A stretch of 64,000 bases of DNA, from the NCBI GenBank assembly GCA_000004695.1, contig CM000155.2:2048001-2112000 (forward strand), written 5' to 3'. The position numbers and the translations under genes were made by a program. The first letter of the stretch is position 1; every line of letters begins with the position of its first letter. The notes under the pieces were generated by a model. That model saw only the letters and a list, made by a program, of their open reading frames with translations, ran no database searches and was not told the origin of the DNA. Of this stretch, positions 32,743 to 47,737 are shown piece by piece. The DNA is from Dictyostelium discoideum. Lineage: Eukaryota.

Positions 32743-33071
32743 AATAAAATTTAAAAAATTAATTAAAATAATAAAATAATAAATATATTTAAAACAATTC
32801 AATTGATTGTAACATAAAATATCTTATTTTATTTAAAATTTTTAAAATTTATTGATGAGTCAATATTTAAAAAATAATTTTTAAGATTTGCATTTAGATA
32901 TTTTTTAATTTTTAATATCTTGATTTTTTTTTTTTTCTTTTTTTTATTTCTCGAAGCCCCATTTTATTTTTAATATATATTTTTTTTATTTAGAATATGA
33001 TTTGAGAATATGGTTTGAGAATAAGAAATATTATTTATCTTTTTCTAATTATTATTAAAATTTTTTTTATA

Positions 33072-33106
<35 letters not shown>

Positions 33107-33219
33107 ATAAAAAGAAAATTTTTTTTCTATTTTTAATTATAAAATAAATATTAATAAAAATTTAAAAACATAAAATTTATAAAATATTTTAAATAAAAAA
33201 AAAAATCAATAAAAGAAAA

Positions 33220-34119
33220 ATGTCAATTTTAATTACTGGTAGTACTGGCAAATTTGGAAAAAATTCAATCGAATTTTTATTATCAAAAGGTGTTGACCCA
33301 AAATCAATAATTGCATTGGTTCGTGAAGAATCAAAAGGTAAACAATTCCAAGAAAAAGGTTTAAATGTTAGAATTGGTGATTATACAAATGAAGAATCTT
33401 TAGTAAAGGCTTTCCAAGGTATTGAAAAATTATTATTCATTTCATCAAGTGATATTGAAAATAGAATTGATCATCATAATAATGTAATTAAAGCAGCTAA
33501 ACAAGTTGGTACAATTAAACACTTGGTTTATACAAGTTTCTTTAGAAAAGAAGAGGTTGAAAAAAGTGGTAATTCTTCAATTGGTTTTGTTGGTAAACCA
33601 CATATTATTGCTGAAGATTTGATTGAAAAATCTGGAATAAATTATACAATTCTTCAAAATATTCTTTATACCGATTTCTTAACAGAATTCTTTTTTGGTG
33701 AAAAGGTATTAGAGAATGGTATTTTTTTCCCAGCAGGTAATGGTATTGGTAACTATGCCATTAGAAAAGATATGGCTGAAGCTGCAGTAAATATATTATT
33801 GGATGAAAATCAACAAAAACATCTAAATAAAAAGTATATCATTTCTAATGAAGAAAGTTCATCATTTGAAGATGCTGCTAAAATTCTCTCTGAAATCAGT
33901 GGTAAAACTCTTTCATATACAAGTCCAGATGTTGCAACATTTGAAAACACTTTAACTGGTTTTGGTGTCCCTCCAGTTTACATTCAACTATCAGTTGCTT
34001 TTGGTTTGGCCATTCAAAATAATGAGTTTAATACCCTTAAAACTGATCTTTCAACATTGTTAAATAGAAAACCAACTACTTTAAAACAATTTTTATTTGA
34101 AACTTATAAAAAACAATAA
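33220..34119 (+). CDS. NmrA-like NAD(P)-binding atypical short-chain reductase (299 aa)
   Basis: The N-terminal Rossmann motif is ILITGSTGKFGKNSIEFLL (GxxGxxG), with overall NmrA/quinone-oxidoreductase-2-like architecture (..VRIGDYTNEESLVKAFQGIEKLLFISS...). Confidence 0.7.
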   Translation: MSILITGSTGKFGKNSIEFLLSKGVDPKSIIALVREESKGKQFQEKGLNVRIGDYTNEESLVKAFQGIEKLLFISSSDIENRIDHHNNVIKAAKQVGTIKHLVYTSFFRKEEVEKSGNSSIGFVGKPHIIAEDLIEKSGINYTILQNILYTDFLTEFFFGEKVLENGIFFPAGNGIGNYAIRKDMAEAAVNILLDENQQKHLNKKYIISNEESSSFEDAAKILSEISGKTLSYTSPDVATFENTLTGFGVPPVYIQLSVAFGLAIQNNEFNTLKTDLSTLLNRKPTTLKQFLFETYKKQ

Positions 34120-34149
34120 ATCCCATTGATTATAAAACAAATTAATTTG

Positions 34150-34305
34150 TTTTGTGTTTTGTCCACAATTTCGCTTCTTTTTTGTAGGCATTTGTATTAC
34201 TAAATATTTATGGTGTTGTTTGTAATTTTCATCTTATTTCTTTTTATTTTTTTTATTTACTTTGAAAAGTTAAAAATCTGGAAATTTTCTGATTAACTTG
34301 ATTCC

Positions 34306-34336
<31 letters not shown>

Positions 34337-34482
34337 AGTGTTAGTCAGAGAGTAATGAGTGAGTTGTTTTATTTTATGAGATGTTTGGGTAGTGGTATTG
34401 AGTATAGTGGTGAGTTCTATTGTCTTCTGAATTGCAATAGTTATAGCGAGATTAATGAGTCTAGTTTGTTTTGTTTTTCATG
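34150..34482 (-). mobile_element. Truncated TRE5-A/DRE-like non-LTR retrotransposon fragment (ORF2 3' end + oligo(A) + part of B-module); its tRNA-proximal end lies 48 bp upstream of tRNA-Leu.
   Basis: 34340-34482 is a close copy of 35172-35310 (the 3' end of ORF2 of the full element). 34311-34338 is poly(T), which is poly(A) on the element strand. 34160-34310 matches 39875-40020 / 34960-35100 (B-module-like). The right boundary at 34482 is 48 bp from the tRNA-Leu 5' end at 34530, which is the typical TRE5 target distance. Confidence 0.65.
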
Positions 34483-34529
34483 AAAAAAACACTACGTATT
34501 ATGTTGTAATAATAATAATTTTCAAACAA

Positions 34530-34611
34530 GTAAGCTTGCCCGAGCTGGTTTAAGGGGTTGCATTAAGGCTGCAATATCATTGATACAAGGGTTCGAATCC
34601 CTTAGCTTACA
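34530..34611 (+). tRNA. tRNA-Leu (anticodon AAG), class II with long variable arm
   Basis: The acceptor stem GTAAGCT/AGCTTAC is 7 bp. The D-arm is GCCCGAGCTGGTTTAAGGGGT. The anticodon stem TTGCA/TGCAA carries loop TTAAGGC (U33, anticodon AAG). The variable arm is ATCATTGAT. The T-arm GGGTTCGAATCCC (B box) is followed by discriminator A. Confidence 0.8.
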
Positions 34612-34642
34612 ATAATTTTAAAAATTATTTTTCAGGATTATA

Positions 34643-34675
<33 letters not shown>

Positions 34676-35103
34676 TGAATTGGATAACGCAATTATTATT
34701 TGCTTCTCCTTGAGATGCTAGATCTCATTTTATTTTATTTTTTTTTTTTTTTTTTACAGGGTCTCTAAAAGAGGGGTTACCTTCCTTTTTTTTTTTTTTT
34801 TTTTTTTGGGTTCGAATTTTGAATTGTATTATTACTTTGGATTAAAACCTTTTTTTTGCCCAAACTTTTTTCTAAATTTTTTTTTATTTTATCGCCGGGT
34901 TCGGGATTGAGGTTTATGACGTATTTGAATGGTTTTTTTTTTAATGGGGTTTTATCCACAATTTGGCTTTTTTTTTGTAGGCCATTGGGGTGGCTAAAAA
35001 TTGGGGGGGTGGTTGGGGAATTTCCATTTAATTTCCTTCCAATTTTTAAAATTTTCCTTAAAAAGGTTAAAAATCGGGAAATTTTTGGATTAACTGGGGT
35101 TCC

Positions 35104-35171
<68 letters not shown>

Positions 35172-38100
35172 TTATTTATAGAAAGTACTGAGTGAATTAT
35201 TGTATTTTTTGAGATGTTTAGGAAGTTCTATTGCGTGAAGAGGTGAGTTCCATTGTCTGCTAAATTGTAATAGCTTTAGCGAGATTAGTGAGTCTAATTT
35301 ATTTTGTTCTTCTGGCCGTTGCTTTGATTTGATTCTTAATGTTTTGTTTATAACCGCTTGTGTCCTGTCCCATGCAGCTCTTTGTGTTTTAATTAGTTCA
35401 CGTATGACTTGTTGTCTGTGAATTATTATTTCTTTTTCATCGTGAATGAGTTTATTTCTTTTGTGCCAGATTTTATCGAATATAATAGCTATTAAATTGG
35501 CTACTAGTGCAATTTGTAGATGGTTTAAAATCTTCACATTCCAGGTGTGAGTGGTGTGTCCACACTTAGTTAGGGTGTAGTTGAAGATTTCTTGTGTGTT
35601 TTTGATGTGGGCTTTGCAGTTGAAGAATATATGTTCTGAGGTCTCATCTTCCCCACACTGTTGGCATGGCATGTTGTATATTTTTGGTAGTGCTTTCAGT
35701 GTGTATCTCCATAATAGATCTCTACCTTTCATGTTTATTATTTTTTTGATTTCTTTAAATGGAAGGTGTTTGCTATTAATTTTGGTCATTATTTCTTTTT
35801 GGCCAGGAGTTGGTATGAATTTGTTGTGTTCAGGAGATTGAGTTGTCATCATATCCTCGTATATTTTTTTTAATTTTGGGAGGTGTTCGTAGTGTGTTTG
35901 TTTATTTTGTGGAGTTTTTAATTGGGTCCATGCTTGCTTGCATTGCCAGTGTAGTTGTAGTTGATTTTGTTTTGTTGTTGTTTTGTTGTTGTTGTTGTTT
36001 TTGAGTTCCTCTTCCCACAGTTTTATATATGAACTAGGAGTGTTACTTACTCTTTGGTGGAGGTATCTTTCGAATAACCATGCTTTCTGTGCTAGTTCTC
36101 TTGTCTTCAGGTTCCATAAGTTTAGGCCACCATTGATATAGTTGTTTTGTCTTCTTTGTAGTGAAAGAGAGTTTTTAGATTTTGTGTTGAAAACGAATTT
36201 TACGATGTTATTTTCAATACTATTGTGTTGTGGTGTGGTGTTGATGTAAGTGTGGAACGTTAACTGAGATAGTGCATATGTTTTTGCCATTATGAGTCTG
36301 CCCATATAGGTTGATGAAGTTGAGTTCCATGTTACTAGTTTAGCTCTGATGTTGTCTGAGATTGTATTGATTTTGGATTTGATACCCTTATTGTTGAAGT
36401 CAAAGCCGAGGTACCTTTCGTTTGATTTTATGACGGTGTATAGCGTTCTGGTGTTCCATTTGAAAGTGATACACGAGCATTTGGTTTGGTTTATTTTTGC
36501 GCTGGTTGCTTGGCAAAACTTCTTGATCCATTCATTCATGAGGAAATGGTCCATAAAGTTGTATGCTATTGTTGCTGTATCATCGGCGAACTGTAGTATT
36601 TTAATGGTTTCTTTGGTTACACCATTGATGCAGCGGTCATTTATTATAGTAGTTGCCATGCATTCAACCACTAATGCGAAGATAGTGGGAGAGATAGGAT
36701 CACCTTGTTTGGTTCCTCTTTTTGATGTAAAGCTTTTAGATAATGAGTTATTGATGTACACTGATGTTTCTGATTCATTGAGTAAGTTCATTATTGTGAG
36801 GACCATTTTGAGTGGTAGTTTTAGATGTGCAAGAGTACGTAGAATGGCGTTATGTGAGATTGAATCGAATGCTTTTTCAAAATCATAAAATGTTATGATT
36901 GGTTCCATATCCTCTTTTGTGTTAATCTCTCGTTTTATTATTTCTATTGTTGAGTTTAAGGTGATGATGTTATCGTGCAGTAGTCTTCTTGGTACGAATC
37001 CAGTTTGGAATGGTGAGATTATTTTGTTTAAGAACTTCAGGATCCTATTGTTGATTATTTTCGAATAGATTTTGTAATCGACATTTAGAAGTGTTATTGG
37101 TCTATAGTTATCCAGGTTGTTTGGGTCTCCTTTGTTTTTATATATAGTAATCAATATCCCTTGTTTGAAGTCCTTTGGGATTGTTGTGTTCCAGAAGTGA
37201 TTGTATAGTTTTGATATTATTGGTAGAATTTCATTAATGTGGTTTTTGTAAAATGTTGGAAGGAGTCCATCTTTACCAGGTGCTTTTCCTTCTTGTATTT
37301 TTTCAATGCCTAGTCTGATTTCGTATTCTTCTATTGGTTGATTAATTTCGTCCAATATCTTTTGATCAATCCTTTTATTGAATGTTTTTAGGAGTTCGTG
37401 GTGAGTGTCTTCGTTGCATTCTCTCTTCTGGTACAGGTTCTCGTAATATCTTCTTGCTACTTCGAGGATATCCTCGTTTTTTGTTACCAAACAATTGTTG
37501 CTTGGATCTAGAATTTGAGGGATTTCATTTGTCTTTCTTTGGACTTTTAACCTTCTGGTTAAGTATTTTGATGGTGTTTCTTTGTTGTTGATGTGGGTGT
37601 TGGTTTGGTTTGCTTGTTTTATTCTTACTTGTTCCTTTAGAATATTGTTGATCTCTTCTTTAAGGAAGATTGCTCTTGAATCTTTGGCTGTTTCGAGTTT
37701 TTCTGCGAGTTCTTTTAGTTTGTTTTTGGTTTTATTGCTTTCTCTAATTTCTATATTAATTGACAGTTTCTTTATTTCATCTTTTAGTTTCAACCATTGT
37801 TCGCAAATGTTTAATTTGTACCATTTGCTGGTGTTCTCTTCGAATTTTTTATTGTAGTATTTAATTGTTTTATTAATTTTGAGGCTGGTTGAATTCATTT
37901 TGAGAGTTTCTAGGTTTTGTCTCCATAGTCTTTCTCCTTTCTTTTGTTGCTCGTATTCTGGTATTTTTAATTCAATGATTACCATGTTGTGATCAGATTT
38001 TAATTTGATTTCCTTAGTAGTAACTATTGGGTTTAGATGGAGTATCTTCTTTGAGACAAAGACCCTATCGATGGTTGATTTGTTTCTTGGAAATGTGATT

Positions 38101-38393
38101 CCATTCTTAATTTCTGTAAATTCGAATTCGTCGAAGATTGTTTTAATATATTTGTTAAGGTTATTATCCACTGAACAGTCTACATTGAAGTCTCCAGTTA
38201 TAATATCGCTGTGTAGTATTTCTTCTGTGAGATTTTCCTTATACCATTCATGTCTTTCGTTTGACTTTGCTGGGGCATAAATGGTTGTGCATTTGATCTG
38301 TGTTTTTGCAATCATCCATTCGGAAGATATAATTCTTTCGTTTATTGTTTTTGTTGTTGTTTTTATTTGGGTGTTGATGATGATTTGTGACAC
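35172..38393 (-). CDS. TRE5-A ORF2: apurinic/apyrimidinic-type endonuclease + reverse transcriptase polyprotein (>=1073 aa)
   Basis: The N-terminal APE-like motifs are ..ITGDFNVDCS.. The RT motifs are FYDFEKAFDSISHNAILRTL (F.D..KAFD) and ILQFADDTATIA (the FADD/YXDD box). A C-terminal Cys/His-rich region is CQQCGEDETSEHIFFNC. The open frame extends upstream of the GTG at 38393 to ~38480 with no in-frame ATG. Confidence 0.8.
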   Translation of the reverse strand: MSQIIINTQIKTTTKTINERIISSEWMIAKTQIKCTTIYAPAKSNERHEWYKENLTEEILHSDIITGDFNVDCSVDNNLNKYIKTIFDEFEFTEIKNGITFPRNKSTIDRVFVSKKILHLNPIVTTKEIKLKSDHNMVIIELKIPEYEQQKKGERLWRQNLETLKMNSTSLKINKTIKYYNKKFEENTSKWYKLNICEQWLKLKDEIKKLSINIEIRESNKTKNKLKELAEKLETAKDSRAIFLKEEINNILKEQVRIKQANQTNTHINNKETPSKYLTRRLKVQRKTNEIPQILDPSNNCLVTKNEDILEVARRYYENLYQKRECNEDTHHELLKTFNKRIDQKILDEINQPIEEYEIRLGIEKIQEGKAPGKDGLLPTFYKNHINEILPIISKLYNHFWNTTIPKDFKQGILITIYKNKGDPNNLDNYRPITLLNVDYKIYSKIINNRILKFLNKIISPFQTGFVPRRLLHDNIITLNSTIEIIKREINTKEDMEPIITFYDFEKAFDSISHNAILRTLAHLKLPLKMVLTIMNLLNESETSVYINNSLSKSFTSKRGTKQGDPISPTIFALVVECMATTIINDRCINGVTKETIKILQFADDTATIAYNFMDHFLMNEWIKKFCQATSAKINQTKCSCITFKWNTRTLYTVIKSNERYLGFDFNNKGIKSKINTISDNIRAKLVTWNSTSSTYMGRLIMAKTYALSQLTFHTYINTTPQHNSIENNIVKFVFNTKSKNSLSLQRRQNNYINGGLNLWNLKTRELAQKAWLFERYLHQRVSNTPSSYIKLWEEELKNNNNNKTTTKQNQLQLHWQCKQAWTQLKTPQNKQTHYEHLPKLKKIYEDMMTTQSPEHNKFIPTPGQKEIMTKINSKHLPFKEIKKIINMKGRDLLWRYTLKALPKIYNMPCQQCGEDETSEHIFFNCKAHIKNTQEIFNYTLTKCGHTTHTWNVKILNHLQIALVANLIAIIFDKIWHKRNKLIHDEKEIIIHRQQVIRELIKTQRAAWDRTQAVINKTLRIKSKQRPEEQNKLDSLISLKLLQFSRQWNSPLHAIELPKHLKKYNNSLSTFYK

Positions 38394-38605
38394 CCCTTGT
38401 CCTGTTTTATCAATTGGTGCGTGGTGTGTTATTTTGTTTTTATATTGTTGATTTATTGAGTAAATTTTATTTGTTTTTATATTTGTTTCAGTTAGAAGTG
38501 CTGCGTCCAGCTTGTTGTTGTCTAATACGGTGTTTATTATGCTGGCAGATTGGATGGTGTTGGATCCTTGGACGTTCCAAACACCTATTCTTATTGTGTT
38601 TTTCT

Positions 38606-39873
38606 TTATAGTTTTATTTGGGGTAGATTTTTATCTACCTTTTGAAGTTTCTGGTTTATTTTGTCTTCTAACTGATCTTTACTTTGTTCGTTGTGTTGTT
38701 GGTCTTGTGTGTTTGTGGGGTTTTTTGATTTACTGATTTGTTTTAGAATTTCCTTGTTGAAGTTGTCTATATCTTCATCCATTTTTGTTTTTATGCTTTT
38801 TTGTCCATATTCACCCAATTTTGGTTTGACTGGTGTTTTGTTGGTCCTGTTTGTTTTGTCTTGTTGTTTGTTTTTTGGTGTGTTTAACAATTTACTTGGT
38901 GAATCAATAATTTTCGATGGTGTACCATAGGTTGGGCTGAAACTCATGATATGTTTTATTGGAGAGGAGAAGAACCATTGATTTGAAGGGATTGAAAGTG
39001 GGAATTCTATTTTTCTTATTGCATCAGTGTTTGGGCTGGTGAAGTCGAAGATATCATTTACCTCTCTAAGTTTTTCTTCCGTTGTTAGTCTCTTTGTTTC
39101 GCCGTGTTGTTTTATTGGTGTATTGTATGGAGATGGTGGTTCAATAGGTTTTTCTGATTTTGTTTTAATTTCTTGATTTTTTATCGATTGGGTATTGATC
39201 TCATTCTCTATTCTTGTTAGTTCATCTACGTTTTCTAGTGATGCATCTATTACCTTTTGAGCTGTATCATCTAGGGCCATAAATGTTTTATCATTAGATG
39301 AGGAGGTGATTGGTGGGATAATGATTGTTCTTTTTCCTTGTTTTGGTATTTGTTCTGATGTAGATTTTGGTTGTTGTTCATCTGATTGTTTTTTATTTTT
39401 GTTTTCTTCTTGATTTTCTGGTAATGAGGTTTGATCTCTCCATCCTTTGTTGGAGTGACCAATTAATGTTAGATTGTCTAGTTCAATGATAGTATCATAT
39501 TCTTCTACGACTCTTTTCACTGTTTTGATAATTAGAGTTTCGCCTTTAATTTCAGATTTAATTAGTTTACATCCTTCATTTTCTATTACCCATTCTATTT
39601 CTGTGAGTGATTTATACCAATCGAAATCCGTATACATATTTTTTGGTCTTAGAGTGGTTATAAATTGTCCTTTTAATTCTGCATCGAACATATTTACAAA
39701 ATAGATTACTGTACTAATACTGTCTGTGAGAATTTTGAATGTATTATTACTTTTGATTAAAACATCTTTTTTGTCCAAACTTTTTTCTAAATCTTTTTTT
39801 ATTTTATCGTCTGGTTCGTGATTGATGTTTATGACGTATTTGAATTGTTTTTTTTTTAAATGAGTTTTATCCA
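38606..39873 (-). CDS. TRE5-A ORF1 protein (422 aa, basic; function unknown)
   Basis: The first open frame of the element follows the B-module (MDKTHLKKKQFKYVININHEPDDKIKK...). A degenerate copy of its first ~60 codons recurs at 34777-34959. The element is retroelement-typical in having an ORF1 upstream of the RT ORF. Confidence 0.7.
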
Positions 39874-40019
39874 CAATTTCGCTTATTTTTTGTAGGCCTT
39901 TGGGGTGCTTAATATTTGGGGGGGTGGTTGGGAATTTCCTTTTATTTTCCTTCTATTTTTTAAAATTTTCTTTAAAAAGTTAAAAATCTGGAAATTTTTT
40001 GATTAACTTGGGGTCCCCG

Positions 40020-40077
<58 letters not shown>

Positions 40078-40080
<3 letters not shown>

Positions 40081-40934
40081 TCTTTTTTATATGAAAAATG
40101 AAATAATCAAAAAAAGAGATTGTTGTTGTTGTTTGTTTTTTTTCGATCTGATTATTTTTTGCTTTTTTTTGAAAATTTTGCTACGCAAAATTCTCAAAAC
40201 GAAACAAATAATAAATTACAATAAAGTAAAAAGATGGCTTTTTAAGATAGTTTATTTATTTATTTATTTGTTTTTTAAGTCTTTTTTATATGAAAAATGA
40301 AATAATCAAAAAAAGAGATTGTTGTTGTTGTTTGTTTTTTTTCGATCTGATTATTTTTTGCTTTTTTTTGAAAATTTTGCTACGCAAAATTCTCAAAACG
40401 AAACAAATAATAAATTACAATAAAGTAAAAAGATGGCTTTTTAAGATAGTTTATTTATTTATTTATTTGTTTTTTAAGTCTTTTTTATATGAAAAATGAA
40501 ATAATCAAAAAAAGAGATTGTTGTTGTTGTTTGTTTTTTTTCGATCTGATTATTTTTTGCTTTTTTTTGAAAATTTTGCTACGCAAAATTCTCAAAACGA
40601 AACAAATAATAAATTACAATAAAGTAAAAAGATGGCTTTTTAAGATAGTTTATTTATTTATTTATTTGTTTTTTAAGTCTTTTTTATATGAAAAATGAAA
40701 TAATCAAAAAAAGAGATTGTTGTTGTTGTTTGTTTTTTTTCGATCTGATTATTTTTTGCTTTTTTTTGAAAATTTTGCTACGCAAAATTCTCAAAACGAA
40801 ACAAATAATAAATTACAATAAAGTAAAAAGATGGCTTTTTAAGATAGTTTATTTATTTATTTATTTGTTTTTTAAGTCTTTTTTATATGAAAAATGAAAT
40901 AATCAAAAAAAGAGATTGTTGTTGTTGTTTGTTT
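40078..40934. repeat. Tandem array, 4.3 copies of a 199-bp unit (TRE5-A 5' 'A-module'-like repeats)
   Basis: The units at 40078, 40277, 40476 and 40675 are essentially identical, with a partial fifth unit to ~40934. Each creates an identical spurious 69-aa ORF (40091, 40290, 40489, 40688). The array is contiguous with the 5' UTR of the retroelement. Confidence 0.85.
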
Positions 40935-40983
40935 TTTTTCGATCTCAGGATTATACGATCCTAATAAAGTGATTTAATTGAAT

Positions 40984-41066
40984 TTTCATCAAACCGGCTT
41001 TGGCGCAATGGTAGCGCGATTGACTGTAGTTATATAAGTGATCAATCGGTTGCTAGTTCGAATCTG
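40984..41066 (+). tRNA. tRNA-Tyr (anticodon GTA) with ~11-nt intron 3' of the anticodon
   Basis: The acceptor stem CCGGCTT/AAGCCGG is followed by discriminator A. The D-arm is TGGCGCAATGGTAGCGC. The anticodon stem ATTGA/TCAAT encloses CTGTAG + an 11-nt insert (TTATATAAGTG) + A, which is the canonical eukaryotic tRNA-Tyr intron position. The T-arm is GCTAGTTCGAATCTGGC. Confidence 0.75.
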
Positions 41067-41100
41067 GCAAGCCGGACTTTTTTAATGTAAATCAATATAT

Positions 41101-41116
41101 CGCTGGTTCGATTCTT
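41101..41116 (+). promoter_or_regulatory. Extra B-box (ex-B) downstream of tRNA-Tyr
   Basis: GGTTCGATTC at 41105-41114 lies ~38 bp beyond the tRNA 3' end and matches the pol III B-box consensus GGTTCGAATCC. Dictyostelium tRNA genes characteristically carry such an external B box. Confidence 0.5.
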
Positions 41117-44937: not shown

Positions 44938-47737
44938 TTACTTTTTTTTTTTTATTAATTTACATACTTTTTTAATTTCATTAAAATAATCTAATAGTTT
45001 TTGTTTTAAAGAGAATAGTAAATTTTTATTATTACAATTATTATAATTTGAAAATGTTATCACAATTATGAATAATGAAATTAGCAAATCTGATGATTGT
45101 GTTGTTAACCTAGTTGGTGAAATAATACCATTTTCTATAATACTACATTTATTAATGATTTTATCAATTATGGTTGGAATTATATTATCAATAATTATTG
45201 AAATGGTCTCATTATCTATATTACTAACATTATCTTTATTTGTTTGATTCAATGTGAATATTAAAATAAAATGAAATACTGTATTAAAAATATCTAAAAT
45301 TTGTTTTTTTTCTTCTTTATTATATTCATTATTTTGATTATTTTGATTATTTTGATTATTTTGATTATTTTGATTATTATTTAAAATTGATAATATTGTT
45401 TTATAAAATAAATTATTATGATTTATTTGAATATATGAAAATAATCTATAAACTTTAAAAAATTGTTGAGGTGGATTTGGGATTGTATTATTTGAACTAT
45501 TGTTATTATCGTTATTATTGTTATTAGGTGTTGTTGTTGTTGTTGTTGTTGATGATGATGAAGAATTTAAATCAATAATTTTGGTGGGTGAATTTTTGAA
45601 AGGATAATTTAAAGATAAAAATAAAATTATTGAAGAAATATCTAATTTCCATGAATGTAATAATTGAATTTCATTGAATTTTAAAATGATTGAATTAATA
45701 ATTGATATCATTGAATCGGTTGGGCTAATTTTAATTGATTTATCAATTGATTCAAATGCTNNNNNNNNNNNNNNNNNNNNNNNNNNNNNNNNNNNNNNNN
45801 NNNNNNNNNNNNNNNNNNNNNNNNNNNNNNNNNNNNNNNNNNNNNNNNNNNNNNNNNNNNGATTTATATTTATAATTTGATCAATTGGAGAAATGTGAGA
45901 ATTTACAGGTGTTAATGATGGAGTTGAAGTTGGAGTTGGAGAAGGAGTTGATGAAACGATAGTATGTTGAACAGCTAAACCAAAATCACCCAATGATACC
46001 AATAAGCCACCTCCATCAGAATTTTCTTCAAATGAACTTGATATATTGCTAAATGATGATTGTTGGTGGTGATCCTCTTCTCTAACTAAAAATACATTAC
46101 CAGGTTTTAAATCTCTATGAATGATTCCCTTGGAATGAATATATCTTAAACCAATACAAATCTGTTTAAAAATATTTAAATTCTCTTCTTCATTAACTTG
46201 ATCAGGTGGTCTATTTTCTAACCATTGACTAAGAGTTTGAGAATATAATTGCATCACAATAAATAATGTTGTAATTCTATTAATTTTTGGTGAAACAATA
46301 TTATTTTTATTATTATTATTATTGTTATTGTTATTATTATTATTTATTGATGGTTTTAATAAAGAATTATTTTGAGTTAATGATGATCTTAAACTTGGTG
46401 GTTGTGATTTTTGTTGTTGTTGTTGTTGTTGTTGTTGGTATTGTTTTGGTGGCATTGAGATTGGTGGAGTTGTTGAAGTTGGAATTGATGATGGATTTGG
46501 AATTAAATCATCATTATTTTCAAATACACCACTATAATCACTATCAGATTCTGATAATGAATCATCATCTGTTTCTTCCTCACCTTCACTTGATGAAAAT
46601 GAACGACGATGACGACTATGATTAAATGATTCAGTATCAGTATCATTTTGTATATTAGTCATAGTACTACGATTTGTGTCATCGAATCCTTGAGAATCAT
46701 CTTCATCGGATTCTTCATCTGAACCATCATCCAAACTAAAACTTGTGTAATGTTTTTTTGGTGTCTTAAAGAAGCCAACTCCATTACTACTAACATCATT
46801 TGAATCATCAGAATCATCATAACTCTTTTTAAAACGTGATGAATTGATCATTGATTCTCGAATTGATGTTTGTTTATTAAATTGTTTAAAATCTTCATCA
46901 TGTGGGAATTGAAGTTTATATAAACTATCATCAGATGATGATGAAGAAGATGACGATGATGATGATGAAATATCATCATCATTATCATCACCTGCACCAG
47001 ATTGGTCCAAAGCTTTTTTCTTACTGTTATTATTATTATTATTTACATTTTTCTTTTTTTGTGGTGAAACTTTCTTTTTGGCTTTATTAACTCTACGATT
47101 ACATGGATTATCACTCTCATTCAAGTAGGAAGCCTCTTCTGAAGTGGTTCCCCAATTGCCATCGAATAATAAATGATTGTTATAAATGATATTTTTGATA
47201 TCACTATCAATTTGTTTACCATTTGAGGTTGACAATGATGTTGATGCCATTGATGATGATGGTGGTAATAATTCCTCAGTCTCTAACCAAGCTGAATGGT
47301 ATCTAACGATATTTCTATGATTTAATGATGCCAAAGTTTTTACCTCTCTCAAAACCTTTTCTAAAAAGGTTTTGGTGGTGTTTTTAAATGGTATCTTTTT
47401 CAATGCATAATATTCTCCATCCAATTTATTCTTTACCTTAAAAACTGATCCATATCCACCTTTTCCAACTTTTTCTATTTCACAAAAATCCTCTTCATAT
47501 CTGGAAACTTTTAATTGTTGTTGAAATTGTTGAAGTTGTGAGTTTGGATGTAATAAGTGAACTTGTGGTATTGGTTGTTGATTTTGTTGGTTTTGTTGTT
47601 GAAATTGTTGTTGTTGTTGTTGTTGTCCACAACTAAAAATAATAAATAGAAAGTAAGTGTTTTTAAAAAAAAGAAAAAAGAAAAAAAGAAATTCGTAATA
47701 AAAGATATTAGTAATAGATTGATATAAATAAAATAAA

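Follow-up and report, generated by a model that had tools for sequence, protein, structure and literature searches.

The autonomous retrotransposon TRE5-A.1 (formerly DRE) is built as AB-ORF1/ORF2-BC, with an A module of ~200 bp, a B module of ~290 bp and a C module of 134-137 bp (PMC3159450). The two open reading frames (ORFs) of TRE5-A overlap, ORF2 being expressed via a -1 frameshift, and the ORF1 protein is described as a 51-kDa protein (PMC5911963). This protein binds TFIIIB subunits, and targeting relies on TFIIIC and TFIIIB at the tRNA gene (PMC5911963; PMC3159450). TRE5-A copies always integrate upstream of a tRNA gene and head to head with it; the distance is 47+/-3 bp for 80% of the tagged copies and 59% of the natural ones, and is also given as 44-54 bp (PMC5911963 among other reports). 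The TRE3-A to TRE3-D elements resemble them in superfamily, in the domain order of ORF2 and in targeting RNA polymerase III genes, but they lack the A, B and C modules and insert 40-150 bp downstream of the tRNA gene in the same orientation. DGLT-A and the yeast element Ty3 also find safe landing sites near tRNA genes via the RNA polymerase III machinery; they differ in having long terminal repeats (LTRs) and an integrase, in making 4-5-bp duplications, and in inserting ~15 bp upstream of the tRNA gene. We analyzed 64,000 bp of the Dictyostelium discoideum AX4 genome (chr6:2,048,001-2,112,000, 23.7% G+C), hereafter called the window, in which an ORF1/ORF2 element separates a tRNA-Leu gene from a tRNA-Tyr gene. 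This element is almost certainly a full-length autonomous TRE5-A.1 non-LTR retrotransposon that entered the tRNA-Leu(AAG)-8/tRNA-Tyr(GUA)-9 spacer through target-primed reverse transcription.

The element in the window shares with TRE5-A.1 its architecture, the ORF1 and ORF2 sequences, the -1 overlap, the oligo(A) tail, a target-site duplication (TSD) of variable length and the head-to-head placement at 49 nt. Between the TSD copies it measures 6,295 bp on the minus strand (34650-40944), and its modules follow one another as A, B, ORF1, ORF2, B, C and oligo(A), which is the published TRE5-A.1 layout (Table 1). A preliminary description, made from the letters of the window, had called it near full-length, which understated an element that is fully full-length. 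The predicted product of ORF2 was identical over 1047/1047 amino acids to the protein DDB_G0269056, for which dictyBase gives the product 'TRE5-A ORF2' (PMC12405889 Table 2); the link between name and sequence was made through dictyBase gene IDs. The ORF1 product was identical at 432 of 436 positions (99%) to DDB_G0281943, a 444-amino-acid, 51.4-kDa protein with many genomic copies, and its size agrees with that of the published 51-kDa ORF1 protein. ORF2 is in the -1 frame relative to ORF1, as published, the two overlapping for 22 nt; the first 105 codons of its open frame contain no ATG. Searches with Pfam profiles gave a strong match to the reverse transcriptase domain in ORF2 (RVT_1, E = 3e-33). 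The homology to TRE5-A that the preliminary description had proposed is thus borne out by the complete identity of ORF2 and by the modules.

Table 1. Features of the tRNA-Leu/tRNA-Tyr locus (window coordinates)
Feature	Position	Strand	Basis
TRE5-A remnant (ORF2 3' end, A-run, partial 3' B module), both ends truncated	34152..34479	-	repeat families D3, D8, D9
tRNA-Leu(AAG), catalogued as LeuAAG-8	34530..34611 (chr6:2082530-2082611)	+	ARAGORN; Rfam 51 bits; S2 Table PMC5391098
TSD, copy at element 3' end	34632..34649	.	repeat search
Oligo(A) tail, A28 (T28 on + strand)	34650..34677	-	sequence reading
C module, ~137-140 bp	34678..34817	-	boundary from repeat families D5, D14
3' B module, 291 bp, duplicate of 5' B module	34818..35108	-	repeat families D5, D7
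Internal A-run (63 nt) between ORF2 and 3' B module	35109..35171	-	sequence reading, repeat families
ORF2, 1,152 open codons + stop	35172..38630	-	ORF analysis, Pfam profiles
ORF1, 444 aa, 51.4 kDa	38606..39940	-	ORF analysis
5' B module, 289 bp, containing ORF1 start	39733..40021	-	repeat families D5, D7
A-run between A-module array and B module	40022..40078	-	repeat families, sequence reading
A-module array, 199-bp unit x 4.5, ending at canonical 5' terminus GATCGA...	40052..40944	-	TRF
TSD, copy at element 5' end	40945..40962	.	repeat search
tRNA-Tyr(GTA), intron-containing, catalogued as TyrGUA-9, targeted gene	40994..41077 (chr6:2088994-2089076)	+	ARAGORN; Rfam 57.8 bits; S2 Table PMC5391098
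B-box-like motif GGTTCGATTCT, 27 nt 3' of tRNA-Tyr (probable external B box)	41105..41115	+	motif scan, alignment

The element is bracketed by the 18-nt sequence TCAGGATTATACGATCCT, which occurs exactly twice in the 64 kb and is identical in both copies. No such repeat was found in 100 dinucleotide-preserving shuffles even when up to two mismatches were allowed, giving a chance expectation of 0. The preliminary description had correctly reported a direct repeat that encloses a ~6.3-kb ORF1/ORF2 element, and the left copy lies where it was said to lie; the right copy had been placed at 40935-40952, ten bases short of its true position (40945-40962). The distances quoted were nevertheless correct, since the left copy begins 21 nt 3' of tRNA-Leu and the 17-mer of the right copy stops 32 nt before tRNA-Tyr. 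The duplication cannot be extended past 18 nt, as the preceding bases are t and c and the following sequence is a T28 run on the left and AATAAAG on the right; it is a clean TSD and not part of a longer duplicated block. Its length is 17 or 18 bp, because the last T of the repeat may equally belong to the oligo(A) tail. When the element and one TSD copy are removed, the two tRNA genes are left with a spacer of 69 bp, and the ~75 bp proposed earlier has to be corrected. The TSD had also been called a near-palindrome, and the inverted arms AGGAT/ATCCT are real. These arms were not found in the orthologous target of other strains nor in the TSDs of other TRE5-A.1 copies, and we consider them coincidental for this reason; a functional role for the palindrome was rejected.

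Other assemblies supplied both the occupied and the empty state of the site. Look-ups with the exact AX4 proteins returned only an isogenic assembly, and the diverged isolates were reached via cluster members of the flanking proteins. In the isogenic assembly GCA_054883475.1 (locus L001), which belongs to the same lineage and has flanking genes that are 100% identical, the same element was present with the same TSD at both junctions. In GCA_054859355.1 (L004) and GCA_054859385.1 (L005), which diverge by 2-4% in coding DNA, the order of the NmrA-like gene, tRNA-Leu, tRNA-Tyr and the downstream gene was conserved while TRE5-A was absent between the two tRNA genes. The target in L004 is single and uninterrupted, ...TTATTGTGCAAATTCATACGAACCTAAACAGG..., and represents a natural empty site of the kind that the preliminary description had proposed to look for in other strains. 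The corresponding region in D. cf. discoideum (L006) was not syntenic and was uninformative on the empty site. The identity of the two TSD copies, and of ORF2 to other genomic copies, indicates that the insertion is recent; it is also polymorphic, being absent from the diverged isolates.

The placement of the element is that of the TRE5-A family. The last base of the element (40944) is separated by 49 nt from the first base of tRNA-Tyr (40994). Element and gene stand 5' end to 5' end, the former on the minus strand and the latter, which lies to the right of the A modules, on the plus strand. This spacing falls within both published windows, 47+/-3 and 44-54 bp, in agreement with the ~49 bp and the TRE5 geometry given in the preliminary description. 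To compare it with other copies, we used the identical ORF2 protein, which was found at nine look-up places in GCA_054883475.1 that correspond to eight loci (one is the locus studied here, and a tandem pair accounts for two of the places). At the seven other loci the element again faces a tRNA gene head to head, and no two of these genes are the same (Val-TAC, Val-AAC, Asn, Ser, Phe, Arg and Pro). After refinement of the junctions the gaps at these loci were 43-49 nt, with one of 55 nt, 9 of which are extra nucleotides, and the TSDs were 12-16 bp, so the geometry suggested earlier for other TRE5 copies is shared by all seven. Tandem pairs or nested stacks of TRE5-A 5' of a single tRNA gene were also seen: L007 has a shorter, ORF2-deleted copy and after it a full one, while L013 and L014 (L014/L015) each have two full copies. 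Such tandem or nested copies are consistent with repeated targeting of occupied sites.

We then weighed other explanations for the arrangement. The insertion point lies only 38 bp 3' of tRNA-Leu, and the target range of TRE3 elements is 40-150 bp downstream of a tRNA gene (PMC5911963), so that tRNA-Leu rather than tRNA-Tyr might have directed the insertion in a TRE3-like manner. However, TRE3 elements share the orientation of their tRNA gene whereas the element in the window is antiparallel to tRNA-Leu, its sequence is that of TRE5-A, and the head-to-head spacing of 49 nt to tRNA-Tyr is the TRE5-A mode seen at the seven other copies. We therefore regard direction by tRNA-Leu as very improbable. 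The identity of the element as a TRE3 was itself excluded by the antiparallel orientation to tRNA-Leu and by its TRE5-A proteins. An LTR element of the DGLT-A/Ty3 type was likewise excluded: the element has no LTRs, the 18-bp TSD being the sole terminal direct repeat in the repeat search, the domain searches found no integrase domain, and the distance is 49 nt and not ~15. A composite of two events, in which a TRE5-A ending at the A-run 35109-35171 adjoins a separate B-C fragment and the 18-bp repeat is a coincidence or an assembly artefact, can be dismissed as scarcely credible: the 63-nt A-run after ORF2 does look like a poly(A) tail and the B-C part differs from the 5' B module at many positions in the window, but the order ORF2, A-run, B and C is the canonical TRE5-A.1 3' structure (PMC3159450) and is collinear in eight independent TRE5-A.1 loci, the mismatches vanish in the independent assembly L001, L001 has the same TSD at both junctions, and a repeat of this kind is expected 0 times by chance.

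A few observations, none of them substantial, speak against reading the element as a full-length TRE5-A.1 targeted to tRNA-Tyr. The TSD of 17-18 bp stands at the long end of the family range and slightly exceeds the 10-16 bp that tagged TRE5-A elements are reported to give. The matches of ORF2 to the endonuclease domain (Exo_endo_phos/APE, E = 0.02) and to zf-RVT (E = 0.04) were below the Pfam cut-offs, with the domains in the expected order. The start codon of ORF1 (39938-39940) reads AGG in the window and ATG in the independent assembly, and the loss of the ATG is most likely a base-call error. Finally, the contact between TFIIIB and the ORF1 protein that would direct the element to tRNA-Tyr is carried over from the literature.

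An oligo(A) tail and a TSD of variable length are hallmarks of target-primed reverse transcription, and both are seen in the window, on a full-length copy whose 18-bp TSD is exact. From published work on the family, a course of events can be proposed in which the ORF1 protein would bind TFIIIB on the tRNA-Tyr gene and this contact would position the endonuclease/reverse transcriptase encoded by ORF2 ~47 bp 5' of tRNA-Tyr, where the endonuclease would nick the DNA. The nick would then prime reverse transcription, which would start at the oligo(A)/C-module end; the observed tail marks this end on the tRNA-Leu side. Staggered cleavage of the second strand would generate the 18-bp TSD. The complete 5' end, with its array of A modules serving as promoter, lies opposite the start of tRNA-Tyr, 49 nt away. 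We also folded the 3'-terminal 54 nt of the C module and obtained a predicted hairpin fold of -11.3 kcal/mol (z = -3.0). The hairpins predicted for the C module would be compatible with the hairpin that is essential for TRE5-A.1 retrotransposition.

The window copy departs from the published TRE5-A.1 scheme in its A modules. The scheme shows a single A module of 200 bp, whereas TRF detected 4.5 units in the window and 10.5 units at the same locus in the newer assembly GCA_054883475.1 (L001 16787-18874). At other TRE5-A.1 loci the arrays ranged from ~2.5 to 19.5 units, an example being the array at about 4405-8283 of L010. Either the reference collapsed the array at the studied locus or the arrays expand after integration. 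In the literature consulted, a search found nothing specific on A-module multimerisation. The oligo(A) tail at the locus also differed between the assemblies, being 28 nt in the window and 24 nt in GCA_054883475.1.

Base differences between the two assemblies were concentrated in repeated sequence. An alignment of the window with L001 over 33000-40100 gave 61 mismatches. Apart from two sites, one in the remnant region described below and the other in tRNA-Leu (34550), all of them are confined to homopolymer runs and the two B modules. Most of the length differences are also in B modules or homopolymer runs. In the B-module mismatch zones (34780-35130 and 39860-40020) the window mostly shows G or C against T or A in L001. 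These mismatches sit immediately left of the two long T runs, and the change that turns the ORF1 ATG into AGG is among them. They are probably base-call errors in the reference. The base at 34550, in the D-loop of tRNA-Leu, is T in the window (GGTTTAAGG) and C in L001, L004 and L005 (GGTCTAAGG); it is either an error in the reference or a substitution specific to AX4. Elsewhere in the window, 45761-45860 is an assembly gap of 100 N within the region of a kinase-domain ORF, and a lone N is present at 49156.

Both tRNA genes are catalogued. LeuAAG-8 and TyrGUA-9 are listed on chr6 by Spaller et al. 2017 (S2 Table, PMC5391098), and the offset of 6,464 bp between tRNA-Leu and tRNA-Tyr together with the gene lengths matched the window to these entries. 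In experimental integrations of a tagged TRE5-A, the adapter library contained 1,138 reads at TyrGUA-9 and 12 reads at LeuAAG-8 (PMC5391098). The products of the neighbouring NmrA-like and VWA genes were exact matches to AX4 DDB_G0292738 and DDB_G0292740. External B boxes have been described (PMC5911963), and the motif GGTTCGATTCT downstream of tRNA-Tyr, which was kept in L004 and differed by one base in L005, is probably an external B box, with the caveat for this assignment that the candidate is only 50 bp away from the internal B box of tRNA-Tyr.

An older TRE5-A remnant lies on the other side of tRNA-Leu. Its identity to the full element is 82% over the ORF2 end, A-run and B module, and 89-91% in the B module. 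The 5' junction of the remnant is 50 nt 5' of tRNA-Leu, again head to head. As TRE5-B and TRE5-C have no 3' B module (PMC3159450), we assign the remnant to the TRE5-A type. It has neither a C module nor a tail, and it is absent from L004 and L005. The AX4 spacer between the NmrA-like gene and tRNA-Leu also appears ~250 bp short relative to L004, which suggests a later deletion.

The two diverged isolates carry insertions of their own around this tRNA pair. In L005 (11773-12665), an independent insert of 875 bp occupies the Leu-Tyr spacer, with oligo(A) on the tRNA-Leu side and a 9-bp duplication, TAACGAACC. Its other (5') end lies 41 nt 5' of tRNA-Tyr and contains two 96-bp direct repeats. It showed no similarity to TRE5-A, and BLAST against the retrieved loci, the output of which was mostly AT-rich noise, gave no match that would classify it. 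In L004 (11375-11639), a TG...CA insert of 265 bp flanked by AAAT lies 13 nt 5' of tRNA-Tyr, and BLAST against the retrieved loci matched it with 73% identity (E = 1e-38) to an LTR in L013 that neighbours a Ty3/gypsy polyprotein gene. L005 (11251-11646) has a TG...CA insert of 396 bp, flanked by AATT, 15 nt 5' of tRNA-Leu. Solo LTRs of DGLT-A are found 13-33 bp upstream of a tRNA gene, the mean being 15 (PMC5006619), and the LTR-like inserts of L004 and L005 fit this geometry. DGLT-A-like solo LTRs are found at tRNA-Tyr and tRNA-Leu in these isolates.

The element and the tRNA locus are both already in the literature, and the copy studied here is an ordinary one of the best-studied Dictyostelium retrotransposon. 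It tells nothing new about TRE5-A itself; its practical value is that it flags problems of the reference assembly in repeats and provides a polymorphic marker locus. We give even chances to the idea that the Leu/Tyr pair is a recurrently hit, strain-polymorphic landing pad, and that the A-module arrays vary in unit number between TRE5-A.1 copies and are under-represented in the reference, suggesting expansion after integration. Both the recurrent landing pad and the array variation may be undocumented at such resolution. For this locus one can see both flanks, the TSD, the natural empty site and the independent insertions that other isolates carry, and it is a clean textbook case of a retrotransposon that persists in a haploid genome dense with genes by targeting the RNA polymerase III machinery at tRNA genes.

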